Source: Bacteroidota bacterium
GTDB lineage: Bacteria; Bacteroidota; Bacteroidia; Palsa-948
DNA length: 64,000 nucleotides
Direction: 5' to 3'
NCBI GenBank assembly: GCA_016213405.1
Contig: JACRAM010000006.1
Span: forward strand, 29,731-93,730
How positions within the stretch are numbered: the first letter of the stretch is position 1; each line of letters opens with the position of its first letter. The translations under genes were made by a program, and so were the position numbers. Below, piece after piece: positions 55,505 to 64,000 of the stretch. The notes below the pieces were generated by a model that saw nothing but the letters and a program-made list of their open reading frames with translations, was not told the DNA's origin and made no database searches.

Positions 55505-56731
55505 TTATTCCACTTCAATATAATCCAAGTCCTTTCCGTATGTTTCTTTCAGTTTGAAAAGGGAGAAGAAGGCGAGAATCATTACCACTGCTCCAACAAT
55601 TATTGCAGATGATAAAATTCCCAGCGATACTGCCATAGCATTCCATGCCAGCGTCATCACTACCAAAGAACCGCGCACAAAATTAGGAACGGTGGTGGTG
55701 ACTGTGGAGCGTATGTTTGTGCCGAACTGTTCAGAAGCCACGGTGACGAACACTGCCCAATATCCTTGCGCAAGTCCGAGTATGAAAATGATGAGATAGA
55801 AAAGTCCGGTCGATGCACCGAATGAAGAAAAATATCCTGTGATGGAAAAAGTGAGCGCAATGAGCGCGATTAAAATCGCCATCCTTCTCGACTTCAGCCA
55901 TTGGCTCATGAATCCGGTTATTAAACTTCCGAGCGCTGCGCCAATGTAATGATACATGACCGCTCTGCCCGGATTGATTGCATCGGTAATTCCAAGATAT
56001 TCTCCAAACTCTTTCGAGAAGGTTACCAGTATTCCGATCACGAACCAGATAGGAAGCCCGAGCATGATACAGTAGATGTACTTGAAAAGTTTTTCTCGCG
56101 TGCTGAAGAGGGAAAAGAAATTACCGCGGCTTGCTTTTGATTCTTTCACTTTGTCAAACATTCCTGATTCGCTCACATACACGCGCAATCCTAAAAGAAA
56201 AAGTCCGAGCACTCCGCCTGCCCAATACGCTTCGCGCCATCCCCATTCTGCAACAGCGAAGGCAAGCACCGCGCCCGCAATCCCCACTCCCGATACAATG
56301 CTGGTTCCCCATCCGCGCGTTTCTTTTGTCATCACTTCAGATACGAGCGTGATGCCAATGCCCAGTTCTCCTGCTAATCCAAACCCTGCAACCACCCGAA
56401 GCCAGGCGTATTGTTCAAAGGTGTGCACAAATCCGTTGGCGATGTTGGCGAGCGAGTAGAGGAGTATGGTGAGAAATAATACAGCCAGTCTTCCTTTTTT
56501 ATCACCGAGAATGCCCCAAACGATTCCGCCAAGCAGCATTCCGATCATCTGCATGTTGATGAGAAATATTCCTGAGTTCTTTATCTGCTCTGCAGGAATT
56601 CCGATTTCTTTCAAACTCGGAACGCGCACAATGCTGAACAGGATCAGATCATAAATATCCACGAAGTAGCCGAGCGCGGCAACAATTACAATGATGTTGA
56701 ATGGATTTTTTGTGCCGGATAATCTGGACAT
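55505..56731 (-). CDS. MFS transporter
   Basis: 12-TM protein with the MFS loop motif ...GILGDKKGRL... between TM2 and TM3. Confidence 0.8.
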   Translation of the reverse strand: MSRLSGTKNPFNIIVIVAALGYFVDIYDLILFSIVRVPSLKEIGIPAEQIKNSGIFLINMQMIGMLLGGIVWGILGDKKGRLAVLFLTILLYSLANIANGFVHTFEQYAWLRVVAGFGLAGELGIGITLVSEVMTKETRGWGTSIVSGVGIAGAVLAFAVAEWGWREAYWAGGVLGLFLLGLRVYVSESGMFDKVKESKASRGNFFSLFSTREKLFKYIYCIMLGLPIWFVIGILVTFSKEFGEYLGITDAINPGRAVMYHYIGAALGSLITGFMSQWLKSRRMAILIALIALTFSITGYFSSFGASTGLFYLIIFILGLAQGYWAVFVTVASEQFGTNIRSTVTTTVPNFVRGSLVVMTLAWNAMAVSLGILSSAIIVGAVVMILAFFSLFKLKETYGKDLDYIEVE

Positions 56732-56976
56732 GAAAAAATACCCGAAACATATTTGTTTCTGGATTTGCGGGCTGGCGTTTACAACTTGATGACAACGAAT
56801 CGATACACTTCGATGCCTTCCCTTCCAACCCTGAAATTAGTTTTCAAGTGACGAAGATACAACTTCCTGACGATTTCGTTCCCGAATTGGACAAAATAGA
56901 GAACTTTTATGACTTGCATTTGCAGGAGTTGCTTCCGATTTCAGTTGGAGAGCAAGGCAACAATGGGAGTATTACC

Positions 56977-57014
56977 CAACAGGCAAAAGAAAACCCCTGT
57001 TATGCGAACAGGGG
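56977..57014 (-). terminator. Rho-independent terminator closing the phage-derived operon
   Basis: Minus-sense GCCCCUGUUCGCAUAACAGGGG stem-loop followed by UUUUCUUUUG. Confidence 0.65.
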
Positions 57015-57042
57015 CAAACTGGTGGGGTGATTTCGCTAAGAA

Positions 57043-58257
57043 TTACCTCCCCTTTTTCTTTGCTTTTGCGTTGGCTGTTTTGGCAGGGCGTTTTGAGAAT
57101 TTCTCAACCTCTTCCCTTAATGCCTGTATCCTTCGCTGAATAGTTTTCAGGGAGGCGTTTTTCAGGTATGCCCCCAATTCATCATCGTCCAGTTTCTTTG
57201 CAATGTCCATCGCCTCTTGCCTCAAGGAATTTTCAGGAGTGACGATTGCCTTTTCCACTCCCTTTTTATTCTGCACCCATGCTGTGATTTGCTGGCGTAG
57301 CTCCTGTCCGAATTGCTCGGAATATCCTTTGCCTAAATCCTCCCACTTGGGATATTTGCCATTGTCTATTTTGAATTTATAAGGCTTCCATCCTAAATTT
57401 TCAATCACACCATCAATTTGTTTTTCCGTTGCGGTGTCATACCATACTTCCCCTCCAATTTCTTTTTCTTCATTGTTTTCTTCCTGCTTCAACCGATCCA
57501 CGATTGAATACCTTTCCTTGATTTTTTTCATGTCCTCTGCCGAAAGTTGTCTGTTTCCATTTATTAACTCAGAAGCCCAAGAAGAAACTGCATGGCTTTG
57601 TGAATACTCTTTTATTTCCTGAAGCATTTTTTTTATTTCAGGTGTAATGTGTAGCGGGGTTTCTTTGGAATCAATTTTGACAAGAACACCACGAAACCCC
57701 TCCAACAAATCAGAGAAGAAATTTCTCCATCTTATTAAATCAGGCAGGTGTTTCTTCGGGTCAAGGTTTTGTATTTCGCTCTCTGCCTGAAGCCATAAAT
57801 TTTGCGATGCTTCTATATGGCGGTTCATTCCTTCCTCAATAGATTTGGAATACCCTGTATGTTTATCGTACTTTTCATAAAGTTTCTCTCCCAATGCTTC
57901 GTGAATGTGCGCCAGCGTTCCCACATCACCCCAATTGGGATTTTTATTTGAGGCGAAATATTCAATGACCTTTTTCAAATCAGTCATCATTTTTTTGATG
58001 TCGTCTTTGGGATTGCCTTTTACACCCCTAACTAATCTTTCCTTCTCCCATTGATTTGTGGCATCATCAAGCATCATTAGCAAGCCCATCATATCGTTCA
58101 CAAATCTCTGTGCGTGTTTAAAAAGCCCTGTTTCCATTTTAATCGCTTCGTTAAAAATTTCGTTGAACTCTTCATCAGAAAATTTTCTGCCGATGTTTTC
58201 TTCGTGCAGTTGTTTCAAATCAGCGAGTTCATCTGAATAATCGATTGTATTTGTCAT
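57043..58257 (-). CDS. Hypothetical 404-aa helical, Lys/Glu-rich protein (phage-module gene)
   Basis: Long ORF with a basic C-terminal tail (KRPAKTANAKAKKKGR); no recognisable motif; last gene of the module. Confidence 0.45.
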   Translation of the reverse strand: MTNTIDYSDELADLKQLHEENIGRKFSDEEFNEIFNEAIKMETGLFKHAQRFVNDMMGLLMMLDDATNQWEKERLVRGVKGNPKDDIKKMMTDLKKVIEYFASNKNPNWGDVGTLAHIHEALGEKLYEKYDKHTGYSKSIEEGMNRHIEASQNLWLQAESEIQNLDPKKHLPDLIRWRNFFSDLLEGFRGVLVKIDSKETPLHITPEIKKMLQEIKEYSQSHAVSSWASELINGNRQLSAEDMKKIKERYSIVDRLKQEENNEEKEIGGEVWYDTATEKQIDGVIENLGWKPYKFKIDNGKYPKWEDLGKGYSEQFGQELRQQITAWVQNKKGVEKAIVTPENSLRQEAMDIAKKLDDDELGAYLKNASLKTIQRRIQALREEVEKFSKRPAKTANAKAKKKGR

Positions 58258-58314
58258 TGGTAATTAGTTTTAATTTGGACAACAGTAACACACATATTTG
58301 GAACACGCAAGTCT

Positions 58315-59556
58315 TTAATAAATGGGGTCTTTCGTTTCGCTTTCTTCTGAATTTGGTTCCTCAAAAATCTGCATCTCTCCGCCCTGATTGAATCTTCCGA
58401 ACTGAACCGCCTTGCCTTGCTCCGGTATTTCGATCACTACATCCACATCGTGCTGAAATTCGTTTCTCCCTCTGAAAGCGCCTTGCTTGGTGGTTTGGAA
58501 AATGAATATGAACGACTTGCCCGGATTGTCGGCTCGCAACTTGTCCAGGTCTTTCGGAGTTAATCCAAGTTTGTTGACACTGTCAAGGATGATGAAATCA
58601 TACTTCGATAAATCTTCCGGCAGATAATCGCTCACATATAAATTAGGATTGGCGACTTCTTTATCAGCGAGTTTTTTATGAAGCGTAGCATCTAATTTTT
58701 CTTCCTTCGCCACATAGAGCGTGCCCCCATGATGACGGGCAAGGTATCCGGCAAAGTCCATGCAGAGGTATGACTTGCCTGTTTTGGGTTTGCCAAAAAC
58801 CATCGCTGTAAATCCTTTACTGGGATCTCCAATCAAATCTCTCCACTTTTTTGAAAAACCAAGCGATTCAAATTTCATTTCAGCGAAGTCAACGCTGCTC
58901 ATCAGGTTGTGATCCTGCGGGGGAGCCGGAGTATCTTCTTTGGGTTGCTCATCAATTCCTCTTAACCCAACGGAGCCAACTTTTTCAGGCAGAGATTTAT
59001 CGGGTAGAGGTTCATCGTACTCTTTGGATTTCTTAATCGCCTCCCGAAGCATCAGTATTGTCGCTTCCTTTAATTGAATTCTTACAGAATGCGCTTTCAT
59101 TCCGTTATAGATATGAAGCAGGGATTTCTGAATGAAGCCGATCTCCCTTGCAAAGACGGAGGACTTGCGAATTTTCTTGCTCACAATTGCAGACTGCAAC
59201 TGCTCTATTGTTTTCAAAAGAACAGGTTTTGCAATTTCTTCATCCCTCCAGTCAAGCAGCAGTTTGAAATACTTTACTTCCTCTTTAAACTTGTGATACA
59301 TCTTTCTGTATTTCCGTTTGGCTGGCATTCCATCCACTCCTGCAAGATTTTTATTCGCTTTGATGTATTCACCGAGTTTTTCAAAAGCAAGGTCAGCGAC
59401 CTTTTTAAACTCCGCATCCTGCTTGTAAAACTTCCAATCCTTGCCTTGATCTGTTTTAGTCATTAGAACGAGATGCGTTTTCTTCAGCACCTCAGGCAGA
59501 TTCTCAAAGCCAATGCGTTTGACTTCTGAAAAGTAATTTTTCTTTGTAATTTTCAT
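58315..59556 (-). CDS. RecA-superfamily P-loop ATPase (KaiC/RadA/DnaB-C/Sak4-like core) with unknown about 230-aa N-terminal domain
   Basis: ...LGFSKKWRDLIGDPSKGFTAMVFGKPKTGKSYL (RecA-fold lead-in plus Walker A), DFIILDSV (Walker B), and a short core after it. Confidence 0.6.
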   Translation of the reverse strand: MKITKKNYFSEVKRIGFENLPEVLKKTHLVLMTKTDQGKDWKFYKQDAEFKKVADLAFEKLGEYIKANKNLAGVDGMPAKRKYRKMYHKFKEEVKYFKLLLDWRDEEIAKPVLLKTIEQLQSAIVSKKIRKSSVFAREIGFIQKSLLHIYNGMKAHSVRIQLKEATILMLREAIKKSKEYDEPLPDKSLPEKVGSVGLRGIDEQPKEDTPAPPQDHNLMSSVDFAEMKFESLGFSKKWRDLIGDPSKGFTAMVFGKPKTGKSYLCMDFAGYLARHHGGTLYVAKEEKLDATLHKKLADKEVANPNLYVSDYLPEDLSKYDFIILDSVNKLGLTPKDLDKLRADNPGKSFIFIFQTTKQGAFRGRNEFQHDVDVVIEIPEQGKAVQFGRFNQGGEMQIFEEPNSEESETKDPIY

Positions 59557-60419
59557 CGCTTGACGATTTTTAATTTTTTGAGTTGTGATTGTAAATCCTT
59601 CAGCATCTTTCTGTCCAATTCATAAATGCCTGTGTCCTTCTCATCGTAGTTAAACACCATCACCTCAGTTTTTATTTTGTCGGTGAGTTTTGTAACTGCA
59701 ATTTTCTTAGTAACCGAATAAACATTCCATTTATATTTCTTAATGTATTTTTTCAGGATGGCATTCGGATAACTGCTGAGTAAGAACTTTCCTTTGATTT
59801 TTGTCAGCGCATTCAACAATCGGATGTAATCCGCTTCCATGTATCCTTTGTAATGCCCTTGATGCGTGTTGATGTATGGCGGGTCGCAGTAAAAGAATGC
59901 TTTATTGAAGTCGCGGAGCTTAATAACACGGATTGCATCGTTGCATTCAATCTGCACCTTCTTCAATCGGTCAGCATATATTTTTGAAAAATCGTCCCGC
60001 TTCTTTGCAACCGAATCTTCCTTTGAATCATCCTTTCCGAAGCTCCAAGAAGTCAGCAGTCCTGCAAATCCCTGATTGGCGAGCGTCCAAAACGCCCATG
60101 CTCGTTTCACATCGGAAAACATTTCAGAGTTTTCATATATCACTCTTGCTTTTTTCCAAAGCATCCTGCTGTGCAGAGTGGATTTGATTTCTTTTTCCAG
60201 TTCTTTGAACTTTGTCTGCACCACTTTGAAAAATATCATCACTTCTCCGTTCGTGTCGTTGATGACTTCAACATTGGATGGAGGTTTTGCAAAGAACAAT
60301 GCGCCTCCTCCGAAAAATGGTTCGCAGTACAAAACGTGCTGTGGAATTAAAGCCAGCAAACGCTTCACAAGCGTTTGTTTCCCTCCGTAATATGTAATCG
60401 GTGTTTTCATAGAAGCCAA
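59553..60419 (-). CDS. dam: DNA adenine methyltransferase (Dam / D12 class, alpha group)
   Basis: KTPITYYGGKQTLVKRL..., CEPFFGGGALFF (motif I), FYCDPPY (motif IV DPPY). Confidence 0.85.
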   Translation of the reverse strand: MASMKTPITYYGGKQTLVKRLLALIPQHVLYCEPFFGGGALFFAKPPSNVEVINDTNGEVMIFFKVVQTKFKELEKEIKSTLHSRMLWKKARVIYENSEMFSDVKRAWAFWTLANQGFAGLLTSWSFGKDDSKEDSVAKKRDDFSKIYADRLKKVQIECNDAIRVIKLRDFNKAFFYCDPPYINTHQGHYKGYMEADYIRLLNALTKIKGKFLLSSYPNAILKKYIKKYKWNVYSVTKKIAVTKLTDKIKTEVMVFNYDEKDTGIYELDRKMLKDLQSQLKKLKIVKR

Positions 60420-60431
60420 AGCCCCTCCTAA

Positions 60432-60448
60432 TCCTCCCCGAAGGGGAG
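60432..60448. repeat. Perfect GAA-triloop hairpin CCTCCCCGAAGGGGAGG between the two methylase genes
   Basis: cctccccgaaggggagg read directly; same CCC-GAA-GGG core as the hairpins at 47.6 kb. Confidence 0.8.
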
Positions 60449-60453
60449 GACTT

Positions 60454-61971
60454 TCAGGCTGCTTGTTTTAGTTTGATATTATTTTTCATTGTTTCATCAA
60501 GATTTTTTCGTGCGATGTTGCAATATTCTTTTTTGCCGTCTATGCCGATAAAATTCCTACCGAGTTCTATGGCGCGAACGCCAGTCGTTCCTGTTCCACA
60601 AAAAGGGTCAAGGATGATTCCACCTTCGGGACAACCGGCAAGGATGGGTTTTGTAATCAGTTCAGTATTGAAGGTTGCATAGTGTTTGTCAGCACCACGC
60701 TTGGTGGAGATCACCCAAAAGTCCGTTATATCACCTGGATTCTTTCCTTTGGGATTAAGTTTGACTGTTGTTTGTTTCCCGCCACCTTTTTTTCCTTTGC
60801 CAAAGGGTCCCTTAGTATTTTTTGAATCCCCTCCGTAAGCAGTCATTCCATATTGCACTCTGTCATACGAAGATGCTTTGTAGGGATCCCGAACCGCATC
60901 CAAGTCAAAATAATAATCGGGATTTTTTGTAAGAAATAAAATATGTTCGTGTTTTTTGGAAAATCGGTCACGAACGCTTTCAGGAAGAGAATTCGGTTTC
61001 GCCCAAATGATATCGTTCCGCACAATCCATCCCCGCTCCACGCATCCACAGGCGAAACGATGCGGAATCAGGGTCAAACACTTTGTACGGAGATTATTTG
61101 CCTTGTCGTTATTCGCATCCTTCGGAACAATTTTCCTTACCTGTACTTTAATGAGCGTTTGGGCATTATCGTAAGGACTCTTTCCGCTTCCGTTCCCACT
61201 TCCGAAATAACTGTCGCCAAGGTTCACCCAAACCGTGCCTTCAGGTTTCAATACGCGGTAAATCTCATCCATCAGCAAGAGCATATTTTCGAGATACTGC
61301 ATATAGGTTTTTTCTAACCCCCACTGCCCTTTGAATCCATAGTCGCGGAGTTGCCAGTAGGGAGGGGAAGTGATCACGCAGTCAACACTCTCATCGGGAA
61401 ATGTTTTTAATACTTTCAGGGAATCTCCTTCAATAATAGTATTGGCGATCTTTTCAATTTCTTTGCTGGGAGGAGTTTTTTTCTTGACTCCCATCAAACC
61501 TTCATTCGAGAAAGAGAAAAAAGAATCTTTTGTTATTATCAGGTGGTCAAGAACAATAATATCCATTGAAGCTGCTGCTGTTTTAATTTTACTGGTAAGC
61601 ATTTTATCTAAATCGCTTGGCTTGATAGTCCCACTTGGATGATTGTGGGCGAGAATAATTGAAACAGAACCGCTTTTTAGCGCGGTGCCAAGAACCAAGC
61701 GGATATCAACTGGCGCGGAAGTCATCGTTCCTTTAGAATGCTTGTAGTATCCGGTGATTTTATTCGCCTGATCGAGATAAAGGACAAAAAACTGCTCCTG
61801 TAGCTCCAGTTCGCCCTTTGGAAAAAGGTTACGAACGAAATCAGCCACTTGCTGTGGATTGGTAACCGCCCCTCCGAAGATTTTTTTATCGGATCGGTGG
61901 TAGCTGATTTTGATTTCAGGTACCACCATATCCGCCACTTCACCGAGAACGATTTCTGCAACTGCCGTCAT
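60454..61971 (-). CDS. Fusion protein: N-terminal RadC-like JAB/MPN domain + C-terminal beta-class N6/N4 DNA methyltransferase
   Basis: ILAHNHPSG (JAMM-like HxHPSG of RadC/DUF2466) at about aa 95-105. Then DCVITSPPYW (motif IV, SPPY) and later DPFCGTGTTG (motif I), the order typical of beta-class N6_N4_MTases. Confidence 0.75.
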   Translation of the reverse strand: MTAVAEIVLGEVADMVVPEIKISYHRSDKKIFGGAVTNPQQVADFVRNLFPKGELELQEQFFVLYLDQANKITGYYKHSKGTMTSAPVDIRLVLGTALKSGSVSIILAHNHPSGTIKPSDLDKMLTSKIKTAAASMDIIVLDHLIITKDSFFSFSNEGLMGVKKKTPPSKEIEKIANTIIEGDSLKVLKTFPDESVDCVITSPPYWQLRDYGFKGQWGLEKTYMQYLENMLLLMDEIYRVLKPEGTVWVNLGDSYFGSGNGSGKSPYDNAQTLIKVQVRKIVPKDANNDKANNLRTKCLTLIPHRFACGCVERGWIVRNDIIWAKPNSLPESVRDRFSKKHEHILFLTKNPDYYFDLDAVRDPYKASSYDRVQYGMTAYGGDSKNTKGPFGKGKKGGGKQTTVKLNPKGKNPGDITDFWVISTKRGADKHYATFNTELITKPILAGCPEGGIILDPFCGTGTTGVRAIELGRNFIGIDGKKEYCNIARKNLDETMKNNIKLKQAA

Positions 61972-62198
61972 TTTGATTTTGGGTTTAGTGATTTGTTGCC
62001 GGGTTGTTTTTCGTATCCCTCGTTGCAGAAAGAGTGAGCGATTGCTTCACCGATGAGTGCACCGATGAATCCGCCTACCATTACATAGGGCATTACTTCC
62101 TTCTCCTTACTCTTTGCGTAATAAAATCCTGTGAGGGATGATATCAGCGTAAAATAGGAAACAATCGCTTTTTCTTTTAATGAAACCTTAGTCGTCAT
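61968..62198 (-). CDS. Small membrane protein (2 hydrophobic segments)
   Basis: 76 aa, translationally coupled (ATGA overlap) on both sides. Confidence 0.4.
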   Translation of the reverse strand: MTTKVSLKEKAIVSYFTLISSLTGFYYAKSKEKEVMPYVMVGGFIGALIGEAIAHSFCNEGYEKQPGNKSLNPKSK

Positions 62199-62848
62199 TT
62201 TTGCAATAATAATGTTGCTGTAGCTCCTGATAAAATCAATATCCCAGCGGAGAGGATTTTTGTTTTCAGGTTAGACCTGTGGATTTTCTTATCCGCAAGT
62301 TTCAGCTTCTCCGTAAGTTCGCTTTGCTGTGCAAGGGAAGAATCTGCTACCTGCCTAAGCATCGAAAAGCTATTTTCACAAACCGCTACCAGCGAGTCCT
62401 TGTTCTGAATGACGCATTTCAGGTCAGCGATTTCATTGTCGCATAAACTATCTCGCATATTAGTTTCAGAAATAAACTGCATAACCTGCGTTTTCAGGGA
62501 ATCGCAATTGGTAATGATATCGCTGGTATCCTTCAGGATTTTACTTTCTGAAATAAGTAGCTGTATTTTCCCTTGCAGGAAATTCACTTTTTGGGTGGAC
62601 TGCGTGAGGGCAACTTCTGTATTCTGAATCTGATTTACCAGCGCATTATTCTTTACCACCCAGTATTGAATCTGATTTTTGTAGTTCTCCTCAATGTTGC
62701 TGACCTGTACTTTAAGTTCCTTGACAACATTTTTTGATTCCCTGATTTCTGTTTTGAATCCTTCCATTGAATTAAACAGGAGGTAAGTTGAAATTGCCGA
62801 TAGCAAGCTGAATAAAATGGTTATGATGATTGTCTTTTTCATTTTCAT
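62195..62848 (-). CDS. Membrane-anchored coiled-coil protein (i-spanin-like topology)
   Basis: N-terminal TM/signal (IIITILFSLLSAISTYLLF), a long heptad-rich middle, C-terminal hydrophobic segment. Confidence 0.45.
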   Translation of the reverse strand: MKMKKTIIITILFSLLSAISTYLLFNSMEGFKTEIRESKNVVKELKVQVSNIEENYKNQIQYWVVKNNALVNQIQNTEVALTQSTQKVNFLQGKIQLLISESKILKDTSDIITNCDSLKTQVMQFISETNMRDSLCDNEIADLKCVIQNKDSLVAVCENSFSMLRQVADSSLAQQSELTEKLKLADKKIHRSNLKTKILSAGILILSGATATLLLQK

Positions 62849-63090
62849 GGTTGTTCGTTTTTAGTTTCGTTAGTGTTTGTTTTTGCTTTTTTCTCTATTG
62901 AATAACCGAAACATCCCGCTCCGATGATGCTGACGAAAGAGTAAAACATATACTCAGGTACTGCGATTCCAAAAAACTGCTGTCCAATCCAACTTATGAG
63001 CGTTACCACTACAAAAACAAGCGTTACTAATTCCCGCAGGTTGTAACTGCCGTCTTTGTCTTTCAGTATTTGTTTTCCAAATTCATTCAT
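62845..63090 (-). CDS. Holin-like small membrane protein
   Basis: 81 aa, two TM helices, a charged C-terminal tail (EKKAKTNTNETKNEQP); located next to the amidase. Confidence 0.45.
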   Translation of the reverse strand: MNEFGKQILKDKDGSYNLRELVTLVFVVVTLISWIGQQFFGIAVPEYMFYSFVSIIGAGCFGYSIEKKAKTNTNETKNEQP

Positions 63091-63751
63091 TGGTGTCGTA
63101 GTTTATGTATCCGATTAATCCCAGTCCGAGCGTGAGTGTTCCTATTACGATTCTTTTAATTGATTCCCTCCGCATCGCACGGAAGTCAAGCAGCGTATAG
63201 GTGAATCGGTTTCCATACAAACTGCTGTGGTTGTCGCACATCGACATGAACTCATTAAAATCACTTGCATTCTGAAAGACCTGGCATCCTGCGGAAAATT
63301 TATCAATGACTTTTGTTTTCCCTTTTGCCATCGCCCTGTGAATGTTGATTCCAAAAATTCCTGTGTCCTTTCTTCCATTGAAAAAATCAAGCCTCGCATT
63401 TCGGTCGTAGTCCCGCATAATGGTCACAGGAGCCATCTGCACAAGGGCTTTGTATTGCCCGAGGTGCATTCCGATTTTGTAGGCATTTACATATTGCCCT
63501 TGTGCGAGGATGGCTGTGCCCTGCGGTTGCATCGGGTTCTTCAGCCAGTAAGTTCCGGGATCGGTCGTTCCTTTGAAAATGTGATAGTTCCATTTTAATG
63601 GTTTTGCTTTGTAGAAAACGTGTATCTCATCATCAAAGCGGTTAGGCACAACGCTACGTGTGCGGATTCCCACGATGTTCAGTTCATAAGGGCGTGTGTT
63701 CAGCACAAAGCCTTTGTCGCGGAGAATGGATTTTACTCTCGGAAGTATCAT
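63083..63751 (-). CDS. YkuD/L,D-transpeptidase-fold-like protein with C-terminal TM anchor (putative peptidoglycan-active enzyme); start at the internal Met overlapping the amidase stop
   Basis: INIHRAMAKGKTKVIDKFSAGCQVF matches H-x(17)-S-x-G-C of the YkuD catalytic pair. C-terminal IVIGTLTLGLGLIGYI. ATGA overlap with the upstream gene if started at 63751 (MILPRV...). Confidence 0.4.
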   Translation of the reverse strand: MILPRVKSILRDKGFVLNTRPYELNIVGIRTRSVVPNRFDDEIHVFYKAKPLKWNYHIFKGTTDPGTYWLKNPMQPQGTAILAQGQYVNAYKIGMHLGQYKALVQMAPVTIMRDYDRNARLDFFNGRKDTGIFGINIHRAMAKGKTKVIDKFSAGCQVFQNASDFNEFMSMCDNHSSLYGNRFTYTLLDFRAMRRESIKRIVIGTLTLGLGLIGYINYDTNE

Positions 63752-64000
63752 GCTGCCTGTTTGAAATCGGGTTTGTAGTTTTTGAGCCACTCTCTCACAT
63801 CAAAGCTTGGACAGGCTTTATGCACGCCCGGAAAATCCCTGTGTCCGAGAAACTTTGCCTTCGGATATTTTTCTCCGAGTTCCATCAGCTTGTTAAACAT
63901 GGAGTGAATCTGTCTTTCAGATCGGTTATCCATTGGATTGCCTTCTTTGTCAACTCCTCCGATGTAGGAGATATGAATGCACTCCTGATTATGACCGTAT
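63748..64000 (-). CDS. N-acetylmuramoyl-L-alanine amidase (Amidase_2/PGRP-type endolysin), 5' part beyond window end
   Basis: ...CIHISYIGG...KFLGHRDFPGVHKACPSFD... (conserved Amidase_2 His / Cys-Pro region). The frame stays open to position 64000. Confidence 0.65.
   Translation of the reverse strand, partial: YGHNQECIHISYIGGVDKEGNPMDNRSERQIHSMFNKLMELGEKYPKAKFLGHRDFPGVHKACPSFDVREWLKNYKPDFKQAA

Follow-up and report, generated by a model that had tools for sequence, protein, structure and literature searches.

A RecA-fold ATPase and its detached tail module in an apparently undescribed virus-like element of Bacteroidota: a candidate helicase acting on the element's own DNA

The gene pair described here, encoding a 413-aa ATPase and a 404-aa helical protein, forms one functional unit, a ring-helicase-type ATPase together with a detached tail, and most likely processes the DNA of the mobile element that carries it rather than defending the host. 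That element, 21-23 kb long, integrated and temperate virus-like, is conserved in Bacteroidota. Our preferred reading, tentative and with a probability of roughly 0.4, is that the pair represents a hexameric helicase used by the element in replication or recombination and equipped with an exchangeable adaptor tail. The element is widespread and apparently undescribed, and we found no description of it or of the ATPase family in the literature.

Both open reading frames were recovered with the positions and lengths (404 and 413 aa) given in the initial annotation (Table 1). They are real genes and not chance reading frames: the ATPase has homologues in 1394 protein clusters, with catalytic residues that are invariant across 85 aligned sequences, and the 404-aa protein has 14 homologues sharing a conserved N-terminal domain. 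On the minus strand of the window, that is, the whole 64-kb stretch of DNA analysed, the order runs from lysis-like genes through the RadC-N4/N6 methylase, the Dam-like methylase, the ATPase and the 404-aa protein to a terminator. The last four genes are predicted to be co-transcribed, since they lie on one strand with gaps of 0-57 nt and the operon has a single strong terminator, solely past the 404-aa gene. The stop codon of the Dam-like methylase and the start codon of the ATPase share an ATGA overlap, and neither methylase was seen with a restriction partner, which bears out the earlier proposal of a link between the pair and two orphan methylases. The lysis-like cassette, part of the same element, encodes 76-aa and 81-aa membrane proteins, a 217-aa TM coiled-coil protein, a 235-aa phrog_3000/endolysin-related protein and an Amidase_2 protein whose gene is cut by the window edge; their counterparts (clusters c18, c4, c3, c5 and c2) each occur in 34-72 of 93 loci. 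On the opposite side, the visible end of the element falls between the terminator hairpin and an MFS transporter gene. Neither tRNA nor Rfam RNA was found within the window, no conserved sequence follows the 404-aa gene among the three closest elements and, as regards attachment sites, the flanks of one element seen whole share no direct or inverted repeat of at least 11 nt.

Table 1. Features of the ATPase locus (positions in the window).
Feature	Position	Strand	Basis
MFS transporter gene	55505-56731		
Intrinsic-terminator-like hairpin, 9-bp stem then TTTCTTTT, closing the operon	56993-57015	-	sequence
404-aa helical protein	57043-58257	-	ORF
Basic C-terminal tail KRPAKTANAKAKKKGR of the 404-aa protein	57046-57093	-	sequence; low pLDDT
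Conserved four-helix bundle of the 404-aa protein, aa ~83-186, possibly DinB/YfiT-like	57700-58011	-	
413-aa ATPase: conserved helical N-domain, disordered linker, RecA-superfamily core	58315-59556	-	ORF + AF2 model
RecA-fold core, aa 220-400, RadA/Sms helicase domain closest	58357-58899	-	
GRFNQGG motif, aa 387-393	58378-58398	-	sequence
Walker B DFIILDS, aa 320-326	58579-58599	-	sequence
Walker A GKPKTGKS, aa 255-262	58771-58794	-	sequence
N-terminal helical domain of the ATPase, aa 1-181	59014-59556	-	AF2 secondary structure
D12/Dam-like N6-adenine DNA methyltransferase	59553-60419	-	PF02086 1e-24
RadC-like JAB domain + N4/N6 DNA methyltransferase, one fused protein	60454-61971	-	PF04002 9e-36, PF01555 3e-54
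Lysis-like cassette, same element as the ATPase	61968-64000	-	ORFs, PHROG matches

The ATPase model (AF2, mean pLDDT 81) agrees with the minimal RecA/KaiC/DnaB-C-like core behind an unrecognisable N-terminal region that had been described from the sequence, except that this region spans about 240 rather than 230 residues; the lead-in LIGDPSKGFTAMVFGKPKTGKS begins at residue 241, and the protein ends 20 residues past the core. Across the 85 aligned sequences (42-78% identity), the invariant positions comprise P257, K258, G260, K261 and S262 in Walker A, D325 and S326 in Walker B, G387, R388, N390 and G392 in the GRFNQGG motif, and the E285/E286 pair, Q354 and H369. The invariance of the Walker motifs, the EE pair, Q354, H369 and R388 argues for an active enzyme. 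R388 is a candidate arginine finger, its invariance being compatible with a finger acting in trans, and GRFNQGG, when aligned by hand, may be the positional counterpart of the KNRFG motif of RadA, whose role has been described (PMC5512693).

Judged from the model, the ATPase is structurally homologous to RadA/DnaB-type helicases. It has in common with RadA/Sms of S. pneumoniae (PDB 8rxc, 5lkm) the RecA-like helicase-domain fold (structural score 16.7), and RadA was the sole, weak match (E about 0.2) of a PDB search with the family profile; the single core sequence retrieved nothing useful from the PDB, and the NCBIfam search yielded sub-threshold KaiC and sms matches only. Among the top 50 viral structure models in BFVD, the best matches are DnaB-like or replicative helicases and primase-helicases, and packaging ATPases are absent. 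These structural and profile matches support the helicase reading. The protein differs from RadA/Sms in five respects: (i) its N-domain is an unrelated 180-aa helical unit, its tail is variable and it comes from a mobile element; (ii) the N-terminal C4 zinc-binding motif (PMC5512693) is absent, C265 being the one cysteine in the entire 413 aa; (iii) in place of the strictly conserved KNRFG, the family has FGRFNQGG, with R388, N390 and G392 invariant and with the K and the exact order absent; (iv) the C-terminal Lon-protease-like P domain is lacking, and the tails of relatives show no Lon match; and (v) it scores 18.7 bits against the equivalog cut-off of 403 bits of TIGR00416. With respect to DnaB-family/SF4 helicases and primase-helicases (T7 gp4, Twinkle, RSF1010 RepA, T4 gp41), it leaves Pfam DnaB/DnaB_C unmatched, carries no primase domain and has a core that, at about 180 aa, is far smaller and in which the canonical H1-H4 motifs are not recognised. 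The resemblance to DnaC/DnaA-type AAA+ loaders and initiators (phrog_3277, 1e-3) is confined to the P-loop, and the fold is RecA-type, not AAA+.

Since RadA is a recombination helicase and not a replication helicase (PMC5512693), the same structural evidence also suits a branch-migration or strand-annealing ATPase of RadA/Sak4 type, possibly acting with host RecA, that would drive recombination-dependent replication, genome circularisation or repair of the element's DNA. The Sak4-like phrog_124 (7e-7), a sub-threshold AAA_24 match, precomputed PF13479 matches in some relatives and RecA-like recombinases at ranks 9 and 50 of the BFVD list are in line with this alternative, as is a 636-kb phage that encodes a core-only homologue beside an exonuclease. 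Like Sak4, the ATPase has a small RecA core and is carried by a mobile element. However, the PF13479 score (19.8 bits) lies below the Pfam cut-off of 27 and the match spans only Walker A to Walker B; Sak4/AAA_24 proteins are core-only and come with a cognate SSB, whereas the ATPase has its long N-region and variable tail, and the element has no SSB or exonuclease partner gene. Considering also the missing RadA hallmarks and the predominance of replicative helicases among the viral structural neighbours, we regard a dedicated recombination motor as unlikely, though the least so of the alternatives.

The N-domain consists of a conserved 65-aa head and a single copy of a helical module of ~85 aa which, on reading the sequences, is duplicated in some relatives (e.g., the L011 protein). 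Ten residues (N7, P21, T35, G38, W41, F58, L61, Q121, Q143 and N151) are invariant in the 85 sequences. The domain belongs to no known family and has no PDB sequence match; its lack of detectable similarity to origin-binding, primase or DnaB N-terminal domains in Pfam and PDB profile searches speaks against a replication helicase.

In Bacteroidota species-representative genomes, 308 ATPase loci were found, each of them closing the same syntenic element, and 20 of 22 resolvable elements sampled independently via another gene possess the ATPase. This fixed position and independent recovery define it as a near-universal core gene of the element and not as variable or hotspot cargo. The hosts are soil, freshwater and wastewater Bacteroidota, and several genomes carry two or three divergent copies of the element. 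A Mu-like transposable phage was considered for such multiple copies and dropped, as the co-resident copies are divergent and integrases of the serine or tyrosine type are present in many elements. Virus collections barely register the element: IMG/VR holds 3 matches among 2.9 million contigs and 50,697 phage records hold none. Among deposited phages, the only matches to the ATPase were a 7-kb contig and the core-only protein of the 636-kb phage. The ATPase is a marker of a very common mobile element, and defining the role of its single conserved motor would reveal how this hidden element class replicates or packages its DNA.

The element encodes nothing else recognisable as a helicase, primase, polymerase or Rep, and a core gene in such a setting favours a helicase function. 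The same is suggested by its location on the circular map, where it adjoins the side with the integrase and the lysogeny switch, and by the core-only relative of the 636-kb phage, which has an exonuclease and a clamp loader encoded at a distance of 2-4 kb and shows weak DnaB-like PHROG matches. We favour, without considering it proven, a replication or recombination role, of which the first is the one that the initial annotation had weighed against defence; that annotation took homology to replication-recombination proteins in a phage context as the finding that would speak against a novel module, and what was found comes close to it, namely homology to RadA/DnaB-type helicases and homologues always located in one integrated virus-like element. 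At the family level, the module is nonetheless new, as had been anticipated. Further observations argue against a replication gene: its place near the end of an apparently late operon, behind lysis-like genes, is unusual for one, and no iterons or origin-like repeats occur in 56600-64000.

In the helicase reading, the ATPase would be a ring-forming, SF4-like DNA motor of RadA/DnaB type serving replication or replication restart of the element. The conserved N-domain would serve as its anchor, either on element DNA or on an initiator; ATP would be hydrolysed at the subunit interfaces of the RecA core by K261, E285/E286, D325, Q354 and, in trans, R388, and would power translocation on DNA and unwinding. 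The variable tail, here the 404-aa protein with its putative DinB-like bundle and basic end, may act as an adaptor tuning the choice of partner or DNA. Translational coupling to protective methylases would allow new DNA to be unwound and methylated within one expression window.

The absence of a recognisable packaging ATPase from the element means that its sole NTPase could instead be the packaging motor. Such a motor might serve a tailless, probably membrane-containing virus with capsid genes diverged beyond recognition, as an SF4-type ring ATPase comparable to the P4 NTPase of cystoviruses. No capsid, portal, terminase, polymerase or Rep was recognised among the element proteins; PHROG and Pfam searches for a capsid on about 30 of them found nothing, nor did PDB profile searches with the capsid candidate c16 and with c13, and c16 has no match among deposited phages. 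By sequence and by fold, however, viral packaging ATPases (terminase large subunit, FtsK/HerA A32-like) are not the closest relatives: HerA (9.7-9.8) and STIV2 B204 (9.5) score far below RadA, and BFVD offers the contrary picture given above. Moreover, the gene is not beside c16, in one element (L161) it is inverted and adjacent to regulatory genes, and no virion is known for the element. We consider a packaging function improbable. A broader version, in which a tailless, possibly membrane-containing temperate virus lineage missed by detection tools employs the ATPase as a novel dsDNA packaging or methylation-coupled motor, non-homologous to terminases, FtsK or HerA and with a plug-in tail setting its specificity, seems hardly more probable.

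A helicase model does not call for the coupling to methylases. In 73/73 loci, the gene immediately preceding the ATPase encodes a DNA methyltransferase, with overlapping stop and start codons in 43, while its type (D12, N4/N6, C5 or DarB-like) is swapped freely beside the constant ATPase. In one element clade, a single protein of 1300-1580 aa that combines a methylase with a Strawberry-notch helicase takes the place of the methylases, and from its domain make-up we take it to be similar to phage P1 DarB; this likeness is a feature of the neighbour and not of the pair, and the window has two ordinary methylases instead. RadC-JAB fusions are typical of establishment and anti-restriction regions. 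These features would suit a methylase-coupled translocase that threads element DNA past the orphan methylases at entry or replication, in a manner functionally analogous to the methylase-helicase fusion DarB. Yet loci whose large methylase protein already includes a helicase still keep the ATPase, the L161 gene stands apart from any methylase, and we found no earlier example of a methylase being assisted by a RecA-type motor. Anti-restriction by this route is in our view quite improbable; for a RecA-type motor so invariably coupled to DNA methylases, we likewise found no described precedent.

A tight, restriction-modification-like association of methylase and ATPase could also point to defence or superinfection exclusion, with the methylase marking self DNA and the ATPase, with its variable tail as sensor or effector, attacking or blocking unmethylated invaders. 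The hypervariable, module-shuffled C-terminal region, reminiscent of many immune sensors, and the co-orientation of the L161 ATPase with a regulator-side gene are compatible with it. In PADLOC-DB v2, the methylases match generic MTase models and the ATPase matches mad8 only (2.6e-5); this match is confined to the P-loop (residues 237-294), and a known defence system was rejected on that ground. No nuclease or effector domain is present, the N-domain lacks invariant acidic or His residues in a catalytic pattern, a constant ATPase beside exchangeable methylases fits a cognate pair poorly, tail-less ATPases are common, and the gene belongs to the fixed core of the element. The defence function proposed initially thus finds little room, and we rate it the least probable of the alternatives; not being a defence island, the locus is of low priority for defence screens.

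Returning to the helicase and its tail, the two genes do belong together, as was originally suggested, but the 404-aa protein is not an independent partner. Sequence comparison identifies it as a detached part of the variable C-terminal tail of the ATPase, because relatives hold fused or split versions in the same slot: the tail is fused to the ATPase in P0133 and split from it, within the same four-gene block, in P0128, and partner modules are found at the C-termini of Walker-A-bearing ATPases. Since tail-less forms exist, the core activity does not require the partner. This shuffling of fused and split tails represents a natural experiment in how ring ATPases gain specificity. The description of the 404-aa protein as motif-free, helical, rich in Lys and Glu and ending in a basic tail proved accurate: there is no significant match in Pfam, PHROG, PADLOC or NCBIfam and none among deposited phages, the model is all-helical, and Lys and Glu make up 12.1% and 11.1% of the residues. 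In the model, its conserved core may resemble the four-helix bundles of DinB/YfiT-like proteins (EgtB N-domain, mycothiol/bacillithiol S-transferases), to which it has no sequence-level match; unlike in those proteins, the bundle forms part of a longer helical protein, which elsewhere is an ATPase tail. The family alignment has H119 in every sequence, with H18, H133 and H147 close to invariant, a spacing that presumably differs from that of the His triad forming the DinB/YfiT metal site.

The more surprising result of this analysis lies outside the coordinates first singled out: the ATPase and its 404-aa partner mark a temperate virus-like element that is widespread in Bacteroidota and has largely been missed by annotation and virus-detection resources. 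As the initial annotation had claimed, both genes of the pair are present, and so are the two methylases to which it tied them; the pair lies on the minus strand of the window, with both methylases found by Pfam upstream on the same strand. The ATPase start is overlapped by the stop codon of the Dam-like gene (ATGA), and 57 nt separate the ATPase from the 404-aa gene. The genes upstream of the methylases overlap one another; their products include small membrane proteins and a 235-aa protein with matches to phrog_3000 and to an endolysin PHROG, and the upstream-most, an Amidase_2 gene, is cut by the window end. The methyltransferase fusion recurs in two other sampled loci (L003 and L176). Elsewhere in the window, a long minus-strand gene run (12000-38000) has a markedly lower G+C content (0.30-0.35) than the remainder (0.39-0.46).

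Features of the window and of sampled element loci (L numbers; positions without a locus are those of the window)
Feature	Position	Strand	Basis or context
404-aa ORF	57043-58257	minus	ORF call
413-aa ATPase ORF	58315-59556	minus	ORF call
D12/Dam-like methyltransferase	59553-60419	minus	PF02086, 1e-24
RadC-like JAB + N4/N6 DNA methyltransferase fusion, 505 aa	60454-61971	minus	Pfam
Terminator-like hairpin, sole strong one	57015-56993	minus	Directly 3' of 404-aa gene
MFS-transporter-like host gene	55505-56731		Beyond hairpin; sequence read by eye
Protein c16, 239 aa	L093:6437-7150; L036:2028-2744
Protein c6	L093:10001-10729
1300-1580-aa methylase/helicase protein	L011:5320-9987; L010:5236-9978; L012:5077-9995		ATPase directly after
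ArsR-type HTH + MerC pair	L007:12061-13047; also L028, L032, L034, L046, L054, L080, L084		Directly 3' of ATPase
Inverted ATPase gene	L161:654-2576	minus	Left end of element

An AlphaFold2 model of the ATPase (85 homologues as input; mean pLDDT 81) agrees with the proposed RecA-type core behind an N-terminal domain, with residues 1-181 forming a helical N-domain, 183-213 a linker that is disordered, and 220-400 a compact core of RecA type. Residue 241 opens the lead-in quoted in the initial annotation; Walker A (GKPKTGKS) begins at residue 255 and Walker B (DFIILDS) at residue 320, and the protein has a single cysteine. Walker A, E285/E286, D325, Q354, K357, H369 and G387-R388-x-N390-x-G392 are invariant in the family alignment. 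In our own residue-level alignment, the last of these motifs would take the position of RadA KNRFG, whose arginine is a proposed arginine finger (PMC5512693). Given the invariant catalytic residues and this placement, the ATPase is almost certainly an active enzyme and probably acts as an oligomer whose active sites are shared.

Assignment to RadA was nevertheless rejected, since the protein has neither the zinc finger nor the Lon-like domain, carries no exact KNRFG and reaches 18.7 bits where the cut-off is 403. Pfam DnaB (no match) and Pfam AAA_24/Sak4 (19.8 bits, cut-off 27) were rejected as well. In terms of mechanism, the ATPase is a known kind in a new form, a mobile element's SF4-like motor from the RecA superfamily; in terms of family it is unclassified and fails the tests by which RadA, DnaB, Sak4, packaging ATPases and known defence systems are defined.

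The partner had been described as motif-free, helical and Lys/Glu-rich with a basic tail, and database searches, structure prediction and composition all agree: Pfam, PHROG, PADLOC and NCBIfam returned nothing significant, the predicted structure is all-helical, and the protein contains 12.1% Lys and 11.1% Glu and ends in KRPAKTANAKAKKKGR. It has 14 homologues in 5.8 billion clusters, and its profile 70 matches in 1.84 billion representatives. To judge by its relatives, the 404-aa protein is an ATPase tail that has become detached. It can be assigned to the ATPase because a 670-aa homologue (P0133), whose gene directly follows that of a D12 methylase in an element of this kind, is an ATPase carrying the partner's conserved domain at its C-terminus; because a stand-alone 482-aa homologue (P0128) begins with a module characteristic of long ATPase tails ('WTEPxHL...REEIP...GGxLT'), followed by the partner domain, and lies behind a 419-aa tail-less ATPase in a window-type block of RadC-methylase, D12-methylase and ATPase; and because the partner HMM matches the C-termini of P0133, P0076, P0017 and P0101, to which a library search adds P0137 and P0138, both with a Walker A. 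Across the ATPase family, the region after GRFNQGG consists of shuffled modules and spans 0-524 residues, lengths near 0, 175 and 275 being common. Tail-less forms are common, which makes the tail or partner an accessory.

The ATPase family comprises 1394 clusters, every named source being Bacteroidota, and GTDB species representatives hold 308 loci (Chitinophagaceae, Sphingobacteriales, Flavobacteriales and unclassified Bacteroidia). Several single genomes carry 2 or 3 copies, with cores 76-94% and tails 36-73% identical, a divergence that makes them distinct elements rather than recent duplications. Whole elements (L095, L109, L122 and L093+L011) are about 21-23 kb long, and the order of protein clusters in the element is strikingly constant: c28 (550-600 aa, weakly transglutaminase-like), c20, c16, c12, c13, c14, c11, c9, c6, c7, c2 (Amidase_2), c5, c3, c4, c18, c1, the methylase slot, the ATPase and the element end. 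The slot holds one or two methylases or a single 1300-1580-aa protein. Window genes correspond to c2, c5, c3, c4 and c18, followed by the methylases; 56990-64000 is the last 7 kb of an element continuing past the window end. Independent sampling through c16 revealed the left end, which starts with a divergent Cro/C1-type HTH gene or a 175-aa gene, followed by an HTH_3 + Peptidase_M78 (ImmA/IrrE-like) fusion, a 182-aa protein without matches between two small HTH-like genes, membrane proteins and c28.

On the 3' side of the ATPase, a small gene and a large serine recombinase occur in about 24 of 93 loci, and a tyrosine integrase in others. Neither recombinase was seen at the visible window end, and integrase, tRNA and repeat were all sought in 56732-57042, where related elements have their serine or tyrosine recombinase, and none was found; the window copy may carry its integrase elsewhere or be immobilised. 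This conserved virus-like element thus has a temperate-type switch, integrases and several peptidoglycan hydrolases. In Pfam and PHROG searches with about 30 of its proteins, and PDB profile searches with c16 and c13, none was recognisable as a capsid, portal, terminase, polymerase, primase or Rep protein. It is present on just 3 IMG/VR contigs and in none of 50,697 deposited phage records, and our literature search found no description of it or of the ATPase family.

The gene immediately upstream of the ATPase encodes a DNA methyltransferase in 73 of 73 distinct loci (D12 in 47, c19 in 26), with an overlap of 4 or 1 nt in 43. This invariant coupling would suit a methylation-linked translocase, a reading we regard as quite improbable. 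The ATPase is also a near-universal core gene of the element: of the 33 loci that were sampled through c16 and extend 9 kb or more downstream, it lies at the right end in 19, while in 12 the sequence stops inside the large c19 gene and one (L151) was assigned to no class. It is absent from a truncated element (L160). In L161 it has been inverted and relocated to the left end, next to the regulatory genes, where it adjoins the 175-aa gene, itself divergent from the HTH-ImmA regulator, and c1 is followed directly by the serine recombinase at the right end. Of the three functions initially offered, defence fares worst: a defence or exclusion system is very unlikely, because the PADLOC run matched the P-loop only, an effector domain is absent, the methylase type is freely swapped around a constant ATPase, the gene belongs to the core of the element and not to its cargo, and ATPases lacking the tail are abundant.

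We favour instead the DNA-processing or replication function, with a probability of about 0.4: the pair would be a ring-type DNA motor belonging to the element itself, its adaptor tail being exchangeable, and likeliest a replication or replication-restart helicase. In line with this, the best matches of the ATPase among predicted viral structures are DnaB-like or replicative helicases and primase-helicases (top E 2.8e-13), the putative catalytic set is invariant, no other replication enzyme is recognisable in the element, and on a circular map the gene lies beside the integrase and switch region. Moreover, a 636-kb phage encodes a 218-aa relative that consists of the core alone; it weakly matches DnaB-like PHROGs and has a replication-type neighbourhood, with an exonuclease and a clamp loader 2-4 kb away. 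On the other hand, the ATPase gene has the position of a last cistron, behind lysis-like genes, origin-like repeats were sought and none found, and the N-domain matches no fold family. A RadA/Sak4-like recombination motor, the nearest rival, is doubtful. A PDB search with the family profile returned RadA alone, weakly (E about 0.2), and a few RecA-like recombinases are among the viral structure matches. A packaging motor is improbable: structural comparison gave HerA 9.7-9.8, STIV2 B204 9.5 and VirB4 10.0, packaging or secretion ATPases scoring much lower than RadA (16.7), and the best 50 viral structures include no packaging ATPase. That reading is retained because icosahedral particles would need a packaging ATPase and none is visible in the element, a point that also weighs against the helicase.

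Among the other element genes, c16 is the most conserved (mean column identity 81% across 30 sequences); it matches nothing in Pfam, PHROG, PDB or phage records and is the obvious candidate for the capsid protein. The membrane-anchored c6 has two internal repeats and barely reaches the Pfam Annexin cut-off (25.7 bits, cut-off 25); to our knowledge, an annexin-like lipid-binding protein is unusual for a bacterial virus-like element. Chitinophagaceae-type elements carry, in place of the two ordinary methylases, the 1300-1580-aa protein, which joins a methylase to a Strawberry-notch-type helicase, presumably the domain make-up of phage P1 DarB. The ArsR-type HTH and MerC pair, found at about a dozen loci in different genomes, is either cargo carried by the element or a target into which it prefers to insert. 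In several metagenome loci (L134, L141, L143 and L153), a pair of genes for an ECF sigma factor and a FecR anti-sigma factor directly adjoins the element on its left, a recurrence that points to a preferred site of integration within one lineage.
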